A stretch of 64,000 nt of DNA from a virus. Within the stretch, counting starts at the first letter, position 1; each line of letters opens with the position of its first letter. Below are positions 7,651 to 49,505 of the stretch, one piece after another. The stretch lies in the IMG/VR virus record IMGVR_UViG_3300046804_005798, positions 8,884-72,883 of that record; one strand, given 5' to 3'. The notes below the pieces were generated by a model. That model had not been told where the DNA came from. It worked only from the letters and a program-made list of their open reading frames with translations, and ran no database searches. A program made the position numbers and the translations under genes.

Positions 7651-10600
7651 ATGGCAATAAAAATCATAGGTTCTACTATCATCGATGATAGTAGAAATAT
7701 AGTTAACGCTGGTATTGCAACTGTAACTTCCGTAAGCATCGGTAATACGCAAGTTGTCAGTTCTGCAAGACAACTTCAGAATATTATCTCTCTGGATGCA
7801 ACAACAACTGCAACGATTGAATCTGCAATTGCTAATGCTCCTAATACCTTTACTGATTTAAGTGTTTCGGGTGTTAGCACTCTTGGTGTTACAAGTGCTA
7901 CAAACTTAACAGCACAACAACTGAATGTTTCTGGTGTTTCTACTTTAGGAACTGTTCAAATATTATCCGGTATCGTTACAGCAACTTCTGGTGTTGTGAC
8001 TTATTATGGTGATGGTTCTAAACTTACTGATATTCAAGTATCATCAACTTCTGGAATTGCCACTTATGCATCAACTGCTGGTATAGCAACTTATTCATCA
8101 ACTTCTGGAATTGCCACTTATGCATCAACTGCTGGTATAGCAACTTATTCATCAACTTCTGGAATTGCTACTTATGCAAATGATGCCGGTGTAGCATCTT
8201 ATGCAATTTATGCGGCATCTGCAGGAATTGCTACTTATGCTAATAATGCAGGTATAGCAACTTACGCATCAACTGCTGGTATAGCAACTTATGCATCAAC
8301 AGCAGGAGTATCCACTGCACTTCAAAACTCAAGAACTTTTGAAATCACTGGTGACGTTGTTGCATCACAAATCAGTTTTGATGGAACCGGTAATGTATCA
8401 CTTGCAGCCACCATTCAACCAAATTCTGTTGCTCTTGGAACTGATACTACGGGCGATTATGTAACTAACATTACAGGAACATCCAACCAAATCACAGTTA
8501 CTTCTGGAACTGGTGAAGGTTCAACACCAACTTTAAGTATTCCGAATCAGTTTACTGCACCACAAGATGTAACAGTTACCAGAGACTTGCAAGTTGATCG
8601 TAATTTAAATGTAAATGGTAATATCACGATTGGTGGAACATCTGCTACAATTTTCTCATCGACACTAAACATTTATGATCCAGATATTGTTTTAGGTGTA
8701 AGAACTGATGGAAGTGGTAATGATGCTTCAACGGATAACACAGCAAATCATGGTGGTATTGCGATTGCATCAACTGAAGGAACCCCACTAGTTTCACTTT
8801 ATGATGTTGGTGTTGGGGAAACTAATCCATCCACATATAAAAAGTTTATGTGGTTTAAATCGGGTACTTTCTCTGGACTTGGAACAGATGCTTGGATTAG
8901 TAATTATGCTATTGGTATTGGTTCAACACAAGTTCCAAATGGAGTAAGACTTGCTGCTGGTGGAATGCAAGTTACTGATACAACAGTAAGTACTCCGCAG
9001 TTAAGTGTTTCGGGTGTTTCTACATTCACTGGAACCGTAAGTTTTGGAACTTCTGCTTACTTTGGTGATAATAATAGAGCATATTTTGGTGATAGTAATG
9101 ATTTAGAGATTTATCATAGTGGAACTAATAGTTTTATTTTAGATAATGGAACTGGAAATCTTGTTTTAGGAACAAATGGAGACAGAGTTTCCATAGTAAA
9201 AGGAACTGGAACAGAAACTCTTGCAAGATTTAATATAGATGATTCTGTAGAACTTTGGTTTAATAATGTAAAAGAATTTGAAACCACTGGATACGGTGCA
9301 ACAGTCTTTGGAACTTTACAGACACAAGGACTTCAAGTTAATTCTGGTGTCTCAACAGTCGGTTTCTTAACGGCAACTAATATTTGGAATTCTGGTATAA
9401 CCACATCATCATCATTCGTAAAATCTGGAGGAACTTCAAATGAGTTCCTCAAAGCAGATGGATCTGTTGATTCATCTACTTATTTAACTTCTTATACTGA
9501 AACTGATACTTTAGATTCTATCACTACAAGAGGCAATACTACAACTAATGGTATTTCTGTAGGAATCTTAACAGCAACTTCTGGTAACTTTAGTGGTATT
9601 ATAACTTCTTCTGGTGCTAATGTTTCTGGAATAACTACAATATCAGTCAATAGTCCCACTGATGCAGCATTAAGAATTACTCAACTTGGATCTGGAAATG
9701 CTCTTGTAGTTGAAGATGAAACAAATCCAGATTCAACTCCATTTGTTATTGATGCCTCTGGTTCTGTTGGTATTGGAACCACAAATCCAGGATCAAAACT
9801 TACTGTTAATGGTGCAGTACAAATACAACAAGATTCTGGTTCTAATAATAGACTTGTTTTTAGAGGACAACCTGGATCTTCTTATCGTTGGAATATTGAT
9901 AACTATTCATCCTCCAATGAATTTAGAATTTTTAGAGAAGATGATGCTACTGCGGCAAATGGATTTTCTCCCTTTAGTATTAGCACTACCGGTACTTTAA
10001 CTGCTAATAAATTTTCTGGTGATGGTTCTTTACTTACAGGTATTACAGCATCAGGTAGTGGTGTTGCAATACAAAATCAAGGTTCTAACGTTGGAACTGC
10101 TACCACTATAAATTTCAGTACAAATCTAACAGCATCATTTTCTTCTGGTACTGCAACTATATCTCTTTCTAATAATCCTTCAATCAGTGGCATACTTACA
10201 GCAGACCAAGTTTATACATCAAATAATGGTAACGGACAAAATATAAGAATAGGTGATGATTTTTGGTTGGGTGATGTTAATGTAGCAAATACTACACGTT
10301 TTTCTGGTGCTCAAGATAGCACCAGAGCGTTTGTTATTTTTGGTAGTTCTGATGATGTTGCATTAGGAAGAACTGGAACAGGTCCTTTATATTATGGAGG
10401 AAATTTTAATGCTGCTGGAATATCTACACTTGGCATTACTTCTACCACTAACTTAACAACGCAACAACTGAATGTTTCTGGTATTGGCACATTCCAATCA
10501 AGCAATCTAAAAATAAGAAACCCAGCAAACACTTTTGAATATTCTATTGTTGGTTCTGCAATTGCTGCAAACAGAAACCTTACATTACCTTTAATTACTA

Positions 10601-15028: not shown

Positions 15029-15067
15029 CAACAACGGGTTAAGAAATGTAACAGGTTCTTAACACAA

Positions 15068-15200
15068 GTTCTTGCCGAAAAGGGACGAAACTCCTCACCG
15101 AGACTAGGCAAGTAAAAGATGTCTCTCATATCCTAGACTGAGGGTGTCTAGGAAATAAGTACCTCCACCATTTCCCTGATGGACTTACTTACTTTTAAAC
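15068..15200 (+). ncRNA. Structured psbA 5' leader, PhotoRC-II-like RNA motif
   Basis: Stems CTTGCC/GGCAAG, TCCTAGAC/GTCTAGGA and CCAT/ATGG within TAAGTA/TACTTA; loops AGGG and CCCT are complementary; sits directly upstream of phage psbA. Confidence 0.65.
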
Positions 15201-15206
15201 GTACAA

Positions 15207-17407
15207 ATGACTGCTACACTTTCACAACAAAAACAAACAAATTCCTGGGAACAATTCTGTAACTGGGTAACTTCAACCGATAATAGGTTGTATGTGGGAT
15301 GGTTTGGAGTCCTTATGATTCCTTGCCTACTTGCTGCTACAACTTGTTTCATCATCGCATTCATCGGTGCTCCCCCAGTGGACATTGATGGCATTCGTGA
15401 ACCAGTTGCTGGATCTCTAATGTATGGAAATAACATCATCTCTGGTGCTGTTGTTCCAAGTTCTAACGCCATCGGCCTGCATTCGTAAAGGAGTGCCTTA
15501 TACCAGAAATGGTATAAGCAAATCGGGTGAATTGCTGGAAACCTAACCCAGTGAAAGGATAAAAGTGTATAAATAGTAATATGGAAACCACTTCTATCCT
15601 AATGACTATCTACGAACAGTTTATTGAGTATTGTAAAATTGAAAACTTTGATAGTCAGTACTATGAAAAACACCATATTGTTCCAAGACATTCTGGTGGT
15701 ACTGATGATAAAGAAAATCTAATTTACTTACCTCCACATATTCACACACTCGCACATTATTACCGTTGGTTGTCATTTCAAGAAATAGGTGACAAAGTTG
15801 CTTACGAAATGAGATGGAACCAAAATATGGAAGGTGTGAAACTTCGTTCTCAACTTGCTGTTGAAACTAATAAACAAAAGGGTAATACTTTTTGGAATAG
15901 TGAATGGCAAAGAGAGCAGGGACTAAAAGGTGGAACAAAAGGAGGTTCTGCTAATACTCAAAACCAGTTTATTGCTAGACAAAAAGTTGGTAAAACTTAT
16001 GGAAAGCAAGTTGGTCTTTCAAGGCAAAAAAGTGATTTGGTAGAAATACTGAAACACTCCACATCTTGGAAACACAAAACTGGAAAAACTGTTACTCTTT
16101 TTCCACAAGAAAGTGTGACTAAACTTTGTGAAGAACTCCAAAGTATTGAATACTTTGATATTCCAAACAAAGCACTTATAGGAAAACTTCTTCGTGGTGA
16201 AAAAAAACAACTTTATGGGTGGTCTTTTACTGGTATGGCAATCAGCAGCCAAGACACAGACGATACTTCTGTGTAAGGTTCATCGACTAGTCGGTTTCTC
16301 AAGCGTGAGATGTAATACGACATTAGCGCCCGACACCCTCAATTTAGGGTGATGATATAGTCAGCACCATAAGGAAACTTATGGATTATGCGTTCTACCC
16401 CATCTGGGAAGCTGCTTCCCTAGATGAGTGGCTTTACAACGGTGGTCCTTTCCAACTCGTTGTCTTCCACTTCCTCATCGGCATCTACTGCTATATGGGT
16501 CGTGAATGGGAACTTTCTTACCGTCTAGGTATGCGTCCTTGGATTATGGTTGCTTACAGCGCACCTGTTGCTGCTGCATCTGCGGTATTCCTGGTCTATC
16601 CTTTCGGTCAAGGTTCTTTCTCTGATGCAATGCCTCTGGGTATCTCTGGTACGTTCAACTATATGCTTGTCTTCCAAGCAGAACACAACATTCTGATGCA
16701 CCCCTTCCATATGCTTGGAGTTGCTGGTGTCTTCGGTGGTTCTCTGTTCAGTGCTATGCACGGTTCTCTGGTTACTTCCTCGCTGGTTCGTGAGACCACC
16801 GAGAATGAGTCCCAGAACTATGGTTACAAGTTTGGTCAAGAAGAAGAGACCTACAACATCGTTGCTGCACACGGTTACTTTGGACGCCTTATTTTCCAAT
16901 ATGCTTCCTTCAATAACTCCCGTTCGCTGCACTTCTTCCTTGCTGCTTGGCCTGTAGTTGGAATCTGGTTTGCTGCTCTTGGTGTAAGCACCATGGCATT
17001 CAACCTTAATGGTTTTAACTTTAATCAATCACTTCTATCATCTGATGGTCGTGTGATTAATACCTGGGCTGACATTCTTAACCGAGCAAATCTTGGTTTT
17101 GAAGTAATGCACGAGCGTAGATTTGGGTATTGCGCTCTTTAAATCGGATGAATTGCTGGAAACCCCAAGTGGGCAATCAGCAGCCAAGTCCTAGATACAT
17201 CTAGGAAAGGTTCAGAGACTACCTGAGGAATAAAGTTTCCTTAATAACAGGCACGAGCGTCCGACACCAGAAATGGTGATGATATAGTCCAATCCTGGTA
17301 GTAATACCAGACAACCAAAGGAATAAAAGAATGCCCATAATTTTCCTTTGGACCTTGCATCTGTTGAAGCAACTCCTGTTGCCTTGACTGCACCGACCAT
17401 CGGGTGA
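15207..17407 (+). CDS. psbA: Photosystem II D1, 3 exons: 15207-15482, 16393-17118, 17330-17407 (359 aa)
   Basis: Exons join in frame: ...NAIGLH^FYPIWE... and ...VMHER^[10 protein letters not shown]...; Glu at position 130. Confidence 0.97.
15483..16392 (+). mobile_element. Group I intron 1 in psbA (910 nt, after codon 92)
   Basis: Exon ends in U, intron ends in G; P1 GCAU^UC/GAGUGC with U-G wobble; core elements GAATTGCTGGAA, AATCAGCAGCC, TCATCGACTA, GATATAGTC. Confidence 0.93.
15581..16276 (+). CDS. Intron-encoded HNH homing endonuclease
   Basis: [18 protein letters not shown]....H..AH motif; TATAAATA at 15568-15575. Confidence 0.9.
   Translation: METTSILMTIYEQFIEYCKIENFDSQYYEKHHIVPRHSGGTDDKENLIYLPPHIHTLAHYYRWLSFQEIGDKVAYEMRWNQNMEGVKLRSQLAVETNKQKGNTFWNSEWQREQGLKGGTKGGSANTQNQFIARQKVGKTYGKQVGLSRQKSDLVEILKHSTSWKHKTGKTVTLFPQESVTKLCEELQSIEYFDIPNKALIGKLLRGEKKQLYGWSFTGMAISSQDTDDTSV
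17119..17329 (+). mobile_element. Group I intron 2 in psbA (211 nt, after codon 334, no ORF)
   Basis: P1 GAGCGU^A/UGCGCUC; core GAATTGCTGGAA, AATCAGCAGCC, TCAGAGACTA, GATATAGTCC; terminal G before AAT GCC CAT. Confidence 0.93.
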
Positions 17408-20876: not shown

Positions 20877-21091
20877 GTGAAGGATTTAAAGGGTTCACTA
20901 AATCTGCTGATGATAAAGAGTTGAGACTTTATATTAAGAACAAAGAAGTTAATAAATTAATCAAGGAATATAAAAAATTAAAAAAATATCAAAGGTCTTC
21001 TATTTTTGAAATTGAAAAACTTTCTGGACAAGAAACGAAAATAGATAAATTAATTAACCAATATGGGATAGATTCTGAAGCAATTGAATAA
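20873..21091 (+). CDS. Hypothetical protein
   Basis: Coupled on both sides; starts MSEGFKGF. Confidence 0.65.
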   Translation: MSEGFKGFTKSADDKELRLYIKNKEVNKLIKEYKKLKKYQRSSIFEIEKLSGQETKIDKLINQYGIDSEAIE

Positions 21092-21417
21092 TGGGAAAAC
21101 ATTACTTACTTAACTTGTATGGATGCTCGTTCGTTCTTTTGGACGACGAGCGTTGTCTTATTGATTTATTAGAAAACGCAGCGGTTGCTAGTGGTGCCAC
21201 TGTGGTTCAGACTATTTCAAAAAAGTTTGAACCACAAGGAGTTACTGTAATTTGTTTGCTTTCTGAAAGTCATATTAGTATTCATACTTGGCCAGAGGAA
21301 GGTAAAGCGGCAGTAGATGTTTATACCTGTGGAGATTGTAATCCAAAGATTGGATGTGACATTATCATTCAACAGTTGTATGCGACCGATCATACATTGA
21401 GTTATATTGAGAGATAA
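21091..21417 (+). CDS. speD: S-adenosylmethionine decarboxylase proenzyme
   Basis: GKH...F.PQGVT...LLSESHISIHTWPE...DVYTCG, with the E-S autocleavage site. Confidence 0.93.
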   Translation: MGKHYLLNLYGCSFVLLDDERCLIDLLENAAVASGATVVQTISKKFEPQGVTVICLLSESHISIHTWPEEGKAAVDVYTCGDCNPKIGCDIIIQQLYATDHTLSYIER

Positions 21418-21419
21418 AC

Positions 21420-21435
21420 TGTAACAAATATTACA
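21420..21435 (+). promoter_or_regulatory. NtcA-type operator TGTA-N8-TACA
   Basis: TGTAACAAATATTACA matches the GTA-N8-TAC consensus and lies just upstream of TTGTCT-N18-TATAAT (21443-21472). Confidence 0.55.
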
Positions 21436-21482
21436 AAAGTGCTTGTCTATATAGTGTAACTAGAGGTATAATAATCCTCTAA

Positions 21483-21785
21483 CGTTCATCCTATGACTAA
21501 AGCACTTTTGCTTTTAGCATGGGTTCCTTTCCTCTTTGTTTCAGCGCCACAAGCATCTAGTATCCAACAGGTTGCTGTTTCTTGTGACACCGCGATGGAA
21601 CTAATGGACATCGTTAAAAACGACGATGTAGTAAACCAAAAGATAGAGGACCGATTGTTATTAGAACTCCGAAAGGATTTCATAGTAAGGTGCTAAAACC
21701 TAATAGGACGGAAGTAAGCCGACGCGGAACGGATCGTTCATTCGCTATTCGCAAATAGCGAACGCAAACGCCGACTGAAGGAACG
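21483..21785 (+). ncRNA. Tandem glnA-motif-like (glutamine riboswitch) RNA; first unit split by an ORF
   Basis: Unit 1: CGTTCA-TCCTAT[ORF]ATAGGA-CGGAAGTAAG...GGAACG (21483-21731). Unit 2: CGTTCA-TTCGCTATT/AATAGCGAA-CGCAAACGCCGACTGAAGGAACG (21735-21785). Confidence 0.7.
21493..21696 (+). CDS. 67-aa secreted two-Cys protein nested in the RNA motif
   Basis: Signal-peptide-like N terminus and a Cys pair; ATG lies within the P2 5' strand. Confidence 0.7.
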   Translation: MTKALLLLAWVPFLFVSAPQASSIQQVAVSCDTAMELMDIVKNDDVVNQKIEDRLLLELRKDFIVRC

Positions 21786-21818
21786 CTCTTTAACCTAAAA
21801 AACTAAGGAGAAAACCTA

Positions 21819-21956
21819 ATGTCTAAAGTCGTATACAGAGGCGTAGAGTATGATACTCAAAAGCGTTTAGAGTATCAACAACAAATGATGCAACAACCTC
21901 AACAATACAACGAAACCTATCGTGGTGTTAAGTTTGTAAAGGAGGGGCACAAATGA
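21819..21956 (+). CDS. DUF4278-like 45-aa peptide
   Basis: MSKVVYRGVEYD...YNETYRGVKF, two YRGV motifs; strong AAGGAG SD; downstream of the riboswitch-like RNA. Confidence 0.8.
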   Translation: MSKVVYRGVEYDTQKRLEYQQQMMQQPQQYNETYRGVKFVKEGHK

Positions 21957-22054
21957 ATACTTACTTCGTTCGTTATCTTAAGAAAAAAGCGAAGAAGGAA
22001 AAACTCCTTCATAACGCACAACTGAATATGGCAAAGCAACCTCAAGTTGCTTAA
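21953..22054 (+). CDS. 33-aa basic peptide
   Basis: MNTYFVRYLKKKAKKEKLLHNAQLNMAKQPQVA; GGAGG SD; ATGA coupling. Confidence 0.65.
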   Translation: MNTYFVRYLKKKAKKEKLLHNAQLNMAKQPQVA

Positions 22055-22060
22055 TAAATT

Positions 22061-22099
22061 AGAGAGGGACTTGACTCCCTCTCTTTTTTTATCTATAAT
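22061..22099 (+). terminator. Terminator overlapping a sigma70 promoter
   Basis: AGAGAGGGA/TCCCTCTCT hairpin plus T-run; TTGACT (22071)-N17-TATAAT (22094). Confidence 0.8.
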
Positions 22100-22122: not shown

Positions 22123-22365
22123 ATGGATAAAGAAAAGCTTAAGTTAATCATCAGAAACCTTGAGTCTCTTGTCGATTGTCTTAAATCAGAAGTATATTCT
22201 GATGTAGATGCATATAAACCAGATCTTCAGTATGAAGAAGTAGCACCTTATATTGATGATTACGATGAGGTGTTCTATGATGATGAGAGTGATGAACTAG
22301 CAGATTTAATGAAAGTAAATCAAAAATACAAACTTACAAACGATGATGATGGAGATGGACTGTGA
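22123..22365 (+). CDS. Conserved acidic cyanophage protein
   Basis: MDKEKLKLIIRNLESLVDCLKSEVYSD...DYDEVF. Confidence 0.75.
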   Translation: MDKEKLKLIIRNLESLVDCLKSEVYSDVDAYKPDLQYEEVAPYIDDYDEVFYDDESDELADLMKVNQKYKLTNDDDGDGL

Positions 22366-23114
22366 AACCTATTAAAGCAAAAGACCTTCTTGAACTGGAT
22401 AAAAATCTTGAAGTAGTAATGCTTCAATGTTATCCACTTCCAGAGCAAGTAATTTATCAAGCAGGAAAATGCGACTATTCAGAAACACCAATTCATAATC
22501 AAAAAATTCCTAAACCAAGTGAATGTGGAGAATGGGTTGTTGAACGTCTTTTAAGTAATGAGAAAGGACACTGGGGACCTCTAGAACACCCTTCAATTAC
22601 TTTTTCTGTGTCTGGGTACGTTCACAACGTTGCAATGCAAGCAAGGACCCATAGAGTAGGAGTTAGTTTTGATGTTCAATCTCAACGATATACTGGAAAA
22701 AGAGTCATTAAGGTTGCTAGTGGAGAACTAAAACCAAAAGATGTATTTTATGTCCGCCCTCCAGGATTTTATACTAATCGTTATGGTAAAAAATATGATT
22801 GGACAGAAGAAGATTATGTGGATGAATTAAATTGGATTGTAGAAGGATGTAAGCGTTATGCAGTAAAATATGATAAAGGAATGTGTGAAGAACATATTCG
22901 TGATTATCTTGCTCAAGCAATTCGTCAAAACTTTGTAGTTTCTTTTAATCTTCGTTCAGTTCTGCATCTTTTAGATTTGAGAGCAAAAATGGATGCTCAG
23001 TTAGAAATTCAAGCACTTTGTGAGCAAATTGCACCTCATCTTGAAAAGTGGGCTCCACACGTTTGGAAGTATTATGAAGAGAAAAGATTACATCGTGCTC
23101 GTTTAAGTCCTTAA
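22362..23114 (+). CDS. thyX: Flavin-dependent thymidylate synthase
   Basis: GHWGPLEH, RTHR...SQRY and NLRS..H.LDLR...AQ.EI motifs; GTG start. Confidence 0.93.
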   Translation: MKPIKAKDLLELDKNLEVVMLQCYPLPEQVIYQAGKCDYSETPIHNQKIPKPSECGEWVVERLLSNEKGHWGPLEHPSITFSVSGYVHNVAMQARTHRVGVSFDVQSQRYTGKRVIKVASGELKPKDVFYVRPPGFYTNRYGKKYDWTEEDYVDELNWIVEGCKRYAVKYDKGMCEEHIRDYLAQAIRQNFVVSFNLRSVLHLLDLRAKMDAQLEIQALCEQIAPHLEKWAPHVWKYYEEKRLHRARLSP

Positions 23115-23149: not shown

Positions 23150-23860
23150 ATGGTTTCACATTACATTTATAAGATAACTAATACTCTAAATCAAAAAATT
23201 TATGTTGGAAAATCTAAAAATCCAAAAGTTAGATGGAGACAACATAAATCTCACTCTAAAAAAAGAAATACAAAATTATATTATGCTATGAGAAAATATG
23301 GTGTAGAAAATTTTACATTTGAAATTTTAGAGGAGTGTTTGGAAAGTCAAGTAAATGAAAGAGAAACACACTATGTTTCTCTTTTGGAACCATATTATAA
23401 TATGACTAATGGTGGTGATGGTGGGGGATTTTTAAACAAAAAACATGGCGATAAGTGGAAAAGTGCAATTAAACAAAGTAATTCTAAAAAAGTTGCTTGT
23501 TATGACTTGGAAGGAAATCTCATAAAAGTTTATGAAAGTTGTAGAGAAGCTTCTTATGATATTTTTGATAAAAACAGTAGAGGCATAGATGCTGTAACCA
23601 GAGGAGAATATCAAACTTATGGTGGATATCAATGGAAATCTTTTGATAAAAAACCAGATTTAAAAATTAAACCGTATAAAAGAACATCGCATAAAATTAG
23701 AAAAGTTGGAAAATATGATTTGTCTAATAATCTAATACAAGTATATGATAGTATGTCTATTGCTGCTGAAAAAAATAATGCTTCAACTTCAAAAATAACT
23801 CTAGTATGTCAAGGAAAAAGAAAAACACACTCTGGACATATTTGGAAATATATTGTATAG
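23150..23860 (+). mobile_element. Free-standing GIY-YIG homing endonuclease with two NUMOD1-like domains
   Basis: YIYKITN..N.KIYVG....RW..H; YNMTNGGDG; TATAAATA at 23118-23125. Confidence 0.9.
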
Positions 23861-48832: not shown

Positions 48833-49114
48833 GCGAGTATGGTGGAATCGGTAGACACACCAGACTTATGAAAATTGAGCCTCATTTGGGAAACCTTGTG
48901 AGTGTAACTCCTCAAATTCGGTGAAACCTGTAAAATGGCAATACCGAGCCAAGCATCGTAAGATGAAGGTGTAGAGACTAGACGGGGAGCACCTAAACCA
49001 AAAGGTATGGTGAAGGTATAGTCCAGACCACAAACCGAAAGGGTAGTGAAAACTATAGTGGTACGAAAATCTGTTGAGCGTATGCTCGTGGGAGTTCAAG
49101 TCTCCCTACTCGCA
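48833..49114 (+). tRNA. trnL: tRNA-Leu(UAA), exons 48833-48867 and 49066-49114
   Basis: Acceptor GCGAGTA/TACTCGC + A; spliced anticodon loop CT-T^AA-AA; long variable arm GAGC-GTAT-GCTC; GTTCAAGTC T-arm; no CCA encoded. Confidence 0.93.
48868..49065 (+). mobile_element. Group I intron (198 nt, trnL/IC3-like) in the anticodon
   Basis: P1 CUU/GAG via AAATTGAG; CAAATTCGGTGAA, AATACCGAGCC, GTAGAGACTAGACGG, AGGTATAGTCC; terminal G. Confidence 0.92.
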
Positions 49115-49432: not shown

Positions 49433-49505
49433 GCTGGTGTAACTCAATTGGTAGAGTAATTCTTTTGTAAAGAATAAGTTGCAGGATCGTGCCCTGTCAC
49501 CAGCT
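49433..49505 (+). tRNA. trnT: tRNA-Thr(UGU)
   Basis: GCTGGTG/CACCAGC acceptor; ATTCT-TT-TGT-AA-AGAAT anticodon arm; atypical T-loop ATCGTGC. Confidence 0.88.

Follow-up and report, generated by a model that had tools for sequence, protein, structure and literature searches.

The 64,000-nucleotide (nt) window analysed here, which is the whole stretch at positions 8,884 to 72,883 of IMG/VR virus record IMGVR_UViG_3300046804_005798, contains an RNA leader resembling the type-1 glutamine riboswitch (Rfam RF01739), and the first hairpin of this leader, H1, spans a whole 67-codon open reading frame (ORF). We read the leader as a double-core glutamine riboswitch with H1 closed around the gene, in which the outer core would not fold while the ORF is being translated, nor the ORF be translated once that core has folded; we put the chance that this reading is right at roughly 60%. 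Glutamine binding, the direction of control and the mutual exclusion are parts that we infer. An enclosing fold of the H1 type is well supported for this class of leaders and plausible for the present locus. A reading made earlier from the letters alone (the sequence-only reading) had proposed that the hairpin loop of a core resembling the glutamine riboswitch holds a whole gene, and the homologues of the gene, its coding selection and the conserved layout bore this out. The coordinates and letters given there were right to the base, as was the placement of the start codon in a stem strand: the A and T of the ATG fall within 21489-94. The parts of the leader, in window positions, are as follows.

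21483-21487, + strand: CGTTC, 5' strand of the outer P1 helix; partner GAACG at 21781-85 (nested fold) or at 21727-31 (side-by-side fold)
21483-88, + strand: CGTTCA, opening of the first unit, read in the sequence
21489-21494, + strand: TCCTAT, 5' strand of H1 (the 'P2 of unit 1' of the sequence-only reading), pairing with 21703-08
21493-95, + strand: ATG of the nested ORF, A and T within the H1 5' strand and G outside it
21493-21696, + strand: nested gene, 67 codons; stop TAA at 21694-96, then 6 nt to the H1 3' strand
21703-21708, + strand: ATAGGA, 3' strand of H1, invariant; its spacer to the stop varies
21709-21716, + strand: outer-core junction CGGAAGTA, fitting the RF01739 consensus ACGGAAGUA
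21717-21724, + strand: AGCCGACG, 5' strand of the shared helix (P2 equivalent), supported by covariation
21727-21739, + strand: inner P1 hairpin (GAACG, loop GAT, CGTTC), invariant, with a linker of 3-5 nt in 92 resolved leaders
21735-40, + strand: second CGTTCA, read in the sequence
21741-21762, + strand: H2, the inner-core hairpin (TTCGCTATT, loop CGCA, AATAGCGAA), 9 base pairs and a 4-nt loop
21769-21776, + strand: CGCCGACT, 3' strand of the shared helix, supported by covariation
21777-21785, + strand: GAAGGAACG, junction plus outer P1 3' strand, identified by the Rfam alignment and by its rarity in the window

The hallmarks of RF01739 that we found in the window are the P1 letters CGUUC/GAACG together with the junction letters ACGGAAGUA and GAAGGAACG, and a P2 helix after the GUA junction, present here as the inter-core helix 21717-24/21769-76. 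The CGGAAGTAAGCCGACGCGGAACG of the first unit runs up to 21731. GAAGGAACG occurs once in the 64-kb window, against 0.14 occurrences expected.

The nested gene and its layout in relatives

Judged by its homologues and by coding selection, the nested ORF is a real protein-coding gene. A large protein collection held at least 250 homologues of its product at E <= 0.1, with lengths of 66-70 amino acids (aa) among the 120 matches listed, and the ORF measures 66-70 codons across the nested-gene family. The ratio of nonsynonymous to synonymous divergence (dN/dS) had a median of 0.32 over 41 distinct coding sequences, and 99.9% of the 785 pairs with dS > 0.1 gave a value under 1. Members of the family share a hydrophobic N-terminus (MTKALLLLAWVP..), which resembles a signal peptide or membrane anchor, followed by a linker that varies and then by a conserved body, in which two helices are bounded by Cys31 and the terminal Cys67, both of them invariant. 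An AlphaFold2 model of the protein contained three helices at a mean predicted local distance difference test score (pLDDT) of 55.8, too poor for a fold search.

Profile collections gave only marginal scores for the nested protein, with best matches at E 0.061 in Pfam and E 0.22 in PHROG, and in a protein atlas its scores of ~0.8 were at chance level. A tblastn search with the nested ORF found no relative among 50,697 phage records (INPHARED), the best hits being chance Erwinia phage matches at E 5. Some of the 68-aa homologues (P0011, P0013, P0021, P0067) bear the label 'site-specific recombinase XerC', for which we found no sequence support. Across 185,579 species genomes there was one locus of the nested family, on a 3.8-kb contig of a metagenome-assembled genome (MAG) that also carries the riboswitch core motif and is probably a mis-binned piece of phage. 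With this contig as its sole locus in cellular genomes, the family looks phage-borne. The 16-nt core motif gave at least 120 rows in cellular genomes, nearly all of them chance matches in unrelated GC-rich genomes.

Relatives of the leader were collected from IMG/VR in three ways. A peptide-pattern scan matched 356 stretches, of which 263 encode a relative of the nested protein, and the locus counts given here refer to the best 80; a scan with a 23-nt core motif gave at least 120 loci; and a second-hairpin motif gave 119 stretches. These three sets (80, 120 and 119) overlap in contigs and are not independent samples.

Both RNA halves are kept around the nested ORF in 71 of the 80 loci, with CGTTCATCCTATG before it and ATAGGACG[G/C]AAGTA..GGAACG after it, and in all 71 of these the ATG stands at +4 of the H1 5' strand. 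Five further loci are truncated at the 5' contig end and retain the 3' half. The stop codon is followed by 0-14 nt before ATAGGA begins, and some relatives have a TAG stop inside ATAGGA itself; beside this variable spacer, ATAGGA and the CGGAAGTA that follows it (21703-16) are invariant.

Leaders with a short first hairpin also occur. That of phage S-CREM1 is the window leader with a GAAA loop in place of 21492-21705, and apart from this replacement only three letters differ, in and beside the H2 loop. The S-CREM1 record labels the region as a glnA riboswitch, and the element is likewise annotated glnA in PMC9964418. Measured against RF01739 (Glutamine, type 1; gathering score 35 bits), natural short-loop first units scored 35.6 bits in DSL-LC02, above the cut-off, 28.9 in S-SRM01, 24.4 in S-PM2 and 20.4 in S-CREM1. 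The other glutamine class, Glutamine-II (Downstream-peptide, RF01704), had no match in 21400-21900 at E <= 10; the S-PM2 first unit scored 24.6 bits against it, under its gathering score of 33.

A shared helix and an ORF-bearing second hairpin

The sequence-only reading took the leader for two tandem units, and a simple side-by-side arrangement was not supported: a covarying helix, 21717-24/21769-76, joins them. Six of its eight positions are standard-paired in at least 95 of 96 distinct leaders, in varied pair types (UA 75/GC 19/UG 2; AU 90/CG 2/GC 3/GU 1; GC 86/GU 4/AU 6), and the other two are conserved A.C or C.A mismatches; none of 2000 shuffles matched the value observed for the 96 leaders. 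In an aligned set of 22 distinct leaders, three of the six pairs change on both sides and 99.2% of cells are paired. None of 500 shuffles matched the score of this smaller set, and slid controls were 26-46% paired. H2 also varies in a compensated manner, with four of its nine pairs changing on both sides.

In two single-core relatives (L070 and L071) the shared helix is closed by an AAA triloop, which identifies it as the P2 of an ordinary core. The covarying inter-core helix thus places an inner, circularly permuted core within the P2 loop of an outer core. The permuted order is GAACG-GAT-CGTTC as a closed P1, then H2, then CGCAAA. Given the shared helix, neither unit would be a complete aptamer alone. 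In L039-L043 (at ~943-985) we noted a 38-nt hairpin-like insert between GGAACG and the second CGTTCA, that is, in the inner P1 loop; L136 is similar.

The leader might instead hold two independent aptamers side by side, each with its own CGTTC/GAACG helix and under pseudo-cooperative control. The two units do begin and end in identical P1 letters, and among folds that contain H1 the side-by-side form is calculated at -87.2 kcal/mol against -85.9 for the nested form. A glutamine riboswitch catalogue also treats doublets as tandem, counting 157 of them plus 4 triplets and terming them pseudo-cooperative (PMC9481103). Against this, the covarying helix 21717-24/21769-76 would cross both side-by-side P1 helices, neither unit has a P2 hairpin of its own, and single-core relatives cap the shared helix with a triloop. 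We therefore give the side-by-side arrangement very little credence.

A sister layout, in which an ORF lies in the second hairpin, supplies covariation evidence for stems that close around genes. It occurs in the named relatives DSL-LC02, S-SRM01 and DSL-LC03 and in many IMG/VR contigs; among the 120 matches listed for the core motif (at least 120 loci), the second hairpin is long in 87, short in 28 and unresolved in 5. At least 81 distinct ORF-bearing second hairpins, of 138-195 nt, could be compared. Their closing pairs 1-5 are standard in 81, 81, 81, 78 and 77 of 81, with three or four pair types at each of positions 3-5 (at position 4, A-U 37, U-A 17, C-G 13 and U-G 11), and none of 2000 shuffles matched the observed pairing. 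The ORF-spanning stems of the sister family covary strongly. The covariation that the sequence-only reading had proposed to test in the long-range P1 and P2 pairs was found in the sister stems and was absent from H1 and P1 here, where those pairs are invariant; their conservation was confirmed.

The sister ATG lies 3-5 nt into the 5' stem strand in 81 of 81 hairpins. Sister ORFs translate through the RNA core and stop at the UGA in GACUGAAGGAACG, giving a C-terminus of ..IDAKAD or ..DAKAD; most second-hairpin proteins end in ..DAKAD, letters set by the RNA core. The second-hairpin ORFs (L048/L049:954-1130 plus the core-motif loci) fall into many divergent groups, whose proteins all begin with a hydrophobic stretch and carry two Cys residues, the first some 8-20 residues from the start and the other close to the C-terminus. 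Homology between the first- and second-hairpin ORF families was not established (hhalign E 0.031, probability 1.6%).

The two layouts can be combined. Of the first-hairpin loci, 76 retain a 3' half; in 15 of these H2 is long and has a second nested ORF, in 59 it is short like that of the window, and two have a single core. Conversely, 83 of the 119 second-hairpin-motif stretches have a recognisable first core directly upstream, whose first hairpin holds the ORF family of the window in 29, is short in 53 and is neither in one. To judge from these contigs, both hairpins can be occupied by ORFs at once.

Predicted switching and rival explanations

Positions 21443-22090 would make up a small early-type operon, with these further features (SD, Shine-Dalgarno sequence).

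21443-21472, + strand: promoter-like TTGTCT-18-TATAAT, 10/12 matches
21786-21810, + strand: predicted expression platform, in which anti-SD CTCTTTA (21786-92) pairs with TAAGGAG (21804-10) in all four constrained folds
21819-21956, + strand: DUF4278-like (IF17-like) gene of 45 aa; PF14105 at E 0.0017 and 19.1 bits, below the cut-off of 25.3
21953-22054, + strand: 33-aa ORF overlapping the DUF4278-like stop (ATGA), conserved and annotated as a coding sequence in S-SRM01; weak match to phrog_545, E 0.026
22061-22090, + strand: intrinsic-terminator-like hairpin (22061-84) and T-run, end of the operon

The DUF4278-like gene also matches phrog_5049 at E 1e-10. The sequence-only reading had made the nested ORF the regulated gene of the switch; since the DUF4278-like gene is still present downstream, with its anti-SD/SD hairpin, the nested ORF is an extra gene instead.

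In metatranscriptomes of three studies, contigs that begin at 21472 span the ORF together with both cores and extend into the DUF4278-like gene, with ends at 21812, 21957 and 21929. Their 10-28 differences from the window show that they come from relatives. In all three studies they start at 21472, the last T of TATAAT, a weak hint of an RNA end. This start does not fit transcription beginning 7 nt after TATAAT, and 21472 may mark where the RNA is processed, not where transcription begins. TATAAT sits in the loop of a hairpin formed by GAGG (21463-66) and CCTC (21476-79). In one RNA contig, 21472 is joined to 22 letters without a match in the window, which look like sequencing adapter. Gaps in RNA-contig coverage at 21387-21444 and beyond 22054 are uninformative.

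In the fold that we propose, the outer core would consist of P1 (21483-87/21781-85), H1 (21489-94/21703-08), the junction CGGAAGTA and the P2-like helix (21717-24/21769-76), and the loop of that helix would hold the inner permuted core, with its P1 hairpin (21727-39), H2 (21741-62) and junction CGCAAA. The leader would end in the anti-SD/SD hairpin ahead of the DUF4278 (IF17-like) gene. A ribosome at AUG 21493 would cover the 5' strands of both P1 and H1, so that either the ORF could be translated or the outer core could fold, but not both at once. With glutamine present, the fold would be stabilised, the nested AUG paired and the nested gene off, while the tail would be pulled away from the DUF4278 SD and that gene turned on, as in gifB. 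With little glutamine, the nested ORF would be translated and the sensor kept open, translation delaying or preventing its closure. In PMC6212724, glnA aptamers precede DUF4278/gifB genes, and for the gifB leader the authors propose that glutamine binding melts an anti-SD-type helix, enhancing translation.

The nested coding sequence appears to carry RNA structure of its own, in three places.

21490-21523, + strand: local hairpin CCTATG...CATGGG at the ORF start, -13.4 kcal/mol
21608-21629, + strand: conserved ORF-internal hairpin ACATCGTT / GACGATGT, one pair CG 33, UA 2
21668-21677, + strand: ORF-internal hairpin TCC-GAAA-GGA, with low dS

Synonymous divergence is low in three blocks of codon columns, with dS of 0.22 (1-11), 0.096 (37-47) and 0.089 (58-63) against 0.6-1.1 elsewhere, and these blocks coincide with the hairpins at 21490-21523, 21608-29 and 21668-77. 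The local hairpin uses the 5' strand of H1 and buries the AUG; its pair 22-34 is AU in 30 sequences, GC in 2 and GU in 2. Compensatory changes in the ORF-internal structures are few (two pairs, four cells), and the slid controls flatter this structure because it was derived from the same sequences. The local hairpin and the two synonymous-constrained ORF hairpins probably organise the 208-nt 'loop'. The ten letters of TCCGAAAGGA (21668-21677), in the block with dS 0.089, are also the whole first hairpin of S-CREM1 (L003:797-806); within the ORF they might be what is left of the original hairpin tip, or else a GNRA hairpin with a function.

A more ambitious version of the same reading would have a two-way glutamine switch between the nested two-Cys protein and the IF17-like protein, with the nested coding sequence doubling as an RNA scaffold that closes the 208-nt loop, and with three outputs in relatives that have both hairpins occupied. 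The three scaffold blocks, with their 5- to 10-fold lower synonymous divergence and with one of them a GAAA-capped hairpin, are consistent with it. We hold this version tentatively, at somewhat less than even odds.

The gene could also be a mere passenger, lodged in a loop that tolerates insertion, as homing-endonuclease ORFs are in group I intron loops, with the switch controlling DUF4278 only and the ORF independent of glutamine. Loop and linker lengths vary widely (the 38-nt inner P1 loop insert in L039-43 is an example), short and ORF-bearing forms coexist (H2 59 short/15 long; H1 53 short/29 ORF), and the ORF persists alone in four loci. A passenger would not be expected to keep its ATG where this one is kept, 3-5 nt into the closing stem in 81/81 sister hairpins and at +4 in all 71 first-hairpin loci with both halves. 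There is no SD before the nested AUG, nor room for one, the AUG standing 5 nt after P1 and at most ~21 nt from the predicted RNA 5' end, and a ribosome on this AUG would have the 5' strands of both P1 and H1 in its footprint. Synonymous sites, moreover, are constrained in the three blocks. On balance we consider a passenger unlikely.

Several results weigh against the double-core leader with H1 closed around the gene. The scan with the glnA model that the sequence-only reading had put forward came out in part: the second unit was found (21733-21789, 33.1 bits, E 2e-5, below the gathering score of 35), and the split first unit was not, cmscan giving no match for it on native 21400-21900 even at E <= 10 with permissive filters. 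Neither unit of the window thus reaches the RF01739 gathering score; that model wants a private P2 hairpin, which neither unit has. The six H1 pairs around the nested ORF never vary (6/6 in 35/35 sequences) and so have no covariation support, conservation without variation being neutral on whether H1 pairs. Likewise, three P1 strands are invariant in 92/92 leaders, as is the outer 5' strand in the 87 where it could be located (it was not in the other 5), so that covariation cannot separate nested from side-by-side P1 pairing. Nearest-neighbour folding, which leaves out tertiary and ligand energies, favours the local hairpin over H1: the minimum-free-energy (MFE) fold lacks H1, and the full aptamer folds are less stable than the MFE by 5-8.5 kcal/mol, though putting H1 in place of the local hairpin costs only 1.4-3.2 kcal/mol in otherwise identical folds. 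The RNA contigs show bridging, not strand, level or true 5' end, and DNA is possible in the libraries. Finally, in four of the 80 loci (L017, L020, L022, L069) the 3' half is missing and the ORF runs directly into a terminator. This lineage has kept the 67-aa gene and lost the 3' part of the riboswitch and the DUF4278 gene, indicating that the nested ORF does not need the switch. L017, L020 and L022 have AGTTCA where others have CGTTCA; L069 is cut before that site.

Some of these same points would fit a disabled outer sensor, in which the 208-nt insertion inactivated the first core, its 5' half being kept as a short leader for the ORF and its 3' half as a partner strand for the second core. 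The split unit goes undetected by cmscan, the MFE fold lacks H1, H1 is invariant, and the shared helix alone could account for the conservation of 21717-24. It would not account for the invariant ATAGGA and CGGAAGTA beside a variable spacer. The sister ORF-spanning stems covary, and the lineage without the 3' half has a C-to-A change in the 5' strand of P1. A disabled sensor thus seems distinctly improbable to us, and we retain the double-core leader with a closing H1.

Phage setting, known systems and significance

The source record of 72,883 bases has an estimated completeness of ~35%. By several marker features the source phage is a T4-like freshwater cyanophage, and the closest named relatives of the window are Kyanoviridae phages. 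A speD gene adjoins the leader upstream (21091-21417), with relatives annotating S-adenosylmethionine decarboxylase under the match. Elsewhere the window has a PhotoRC-II RNA (15060-15166), two group I introns (17069-17311 and 48858-49047; 92 and 59.6 bits) and a tRNA (49433-49505). Downstream of the operon, a 236-aa ORF (23150-23860) follows a thymidylate-synthase-like gene (22362-23114). The start of this ORF resembles that of a GIY-YIG endonuclease.

Among known systems the leader is closest to the type-1 glutamine riboswitch as described in PMC6212724 for the Synechocystis gifB/IF17 leader. The two have in common the CGUUC/GAACG letters of P1, the ACGGAAGUA and GAAGGAACG junctions and a tail able to pair with the SD; the window also has a predicted hairpin following P1, and the gene downstream is a candidate DUF4278-type gene. 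Where the known form is one three-way junction, the window has two cores sharing one helix; its hairpin encloses a 67-codon gene, its score lies below the Rfam gathering score, and it belongs to a phage rather than to a cyanobacterium. The doublet glutamine riboswitches, as catalogued in PMC9481103, also have two glutamine-type cores in one leader. Those doublets are tandem and pseudo-cooperative, whereas the cores of the window are joined by a helix, one inside the other, and carry a gene.

Two other kinds of RNA invite comparison. Group I introns house homing endonuclease ORFs in peripheral loops while their core must still fold, and they too place a protein gene in the hairpin loop of a structured RNA. 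Here, in contrast, the start codon is in the closing stem, the RNA is a predicted ligand sensor on the same mRNA, and nothing about the nested protein suggests a mobility enzyme. In leader-peptide attenuators and switches coupled to upstream ORFs, a ribosome on a short upstream ORF decides the fold of the RNA. Unlike the disposable sensor peptides of such systems, the product of the nested ORF is conserved and under purifying selection, and the competing fold would be a metabolite aptamer. The sister second-hairpin layout is the nearest parallel, with the same double-core leader, an ATG in the stem and small two-Cys proteins; its ORFs are in the hairpin of the inner core, and that of the window occupies the outer one, encodes a long hydrophobic N-terminus and ends 6 nt short of the stem. 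Glutamine binding by RNAs of this type was reportedly first tested by Ames and Breaker in 2011. Our literature search, which most subscription journals lay outside, found no description of a gene inside a glutamine aptamer or of a shared helix. What the window adds is the first-hairpin gene family, and the possibility of occupying both hairpins at once.

Standard RNA-family scans miss this element, which affects riboswitch counts in phage and metagenome data, and the layout is common: among the matches listed, 87 of 120 core-motif loci have an ORF-bearing hairpin. The leader also offers a natural system for asking how long insertions are tolerated in aptamer hairpins. Riboswitches are usually described as non-coding leaders acting on downstream genes, and here a conserved gene lies inside the sensor. 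With its start codon part of a sensor helix, sensing and translation of the nested gene would be physically coupled without a separate expression platform. This points to a small phage protein family tied to the nitrogen status of the host.

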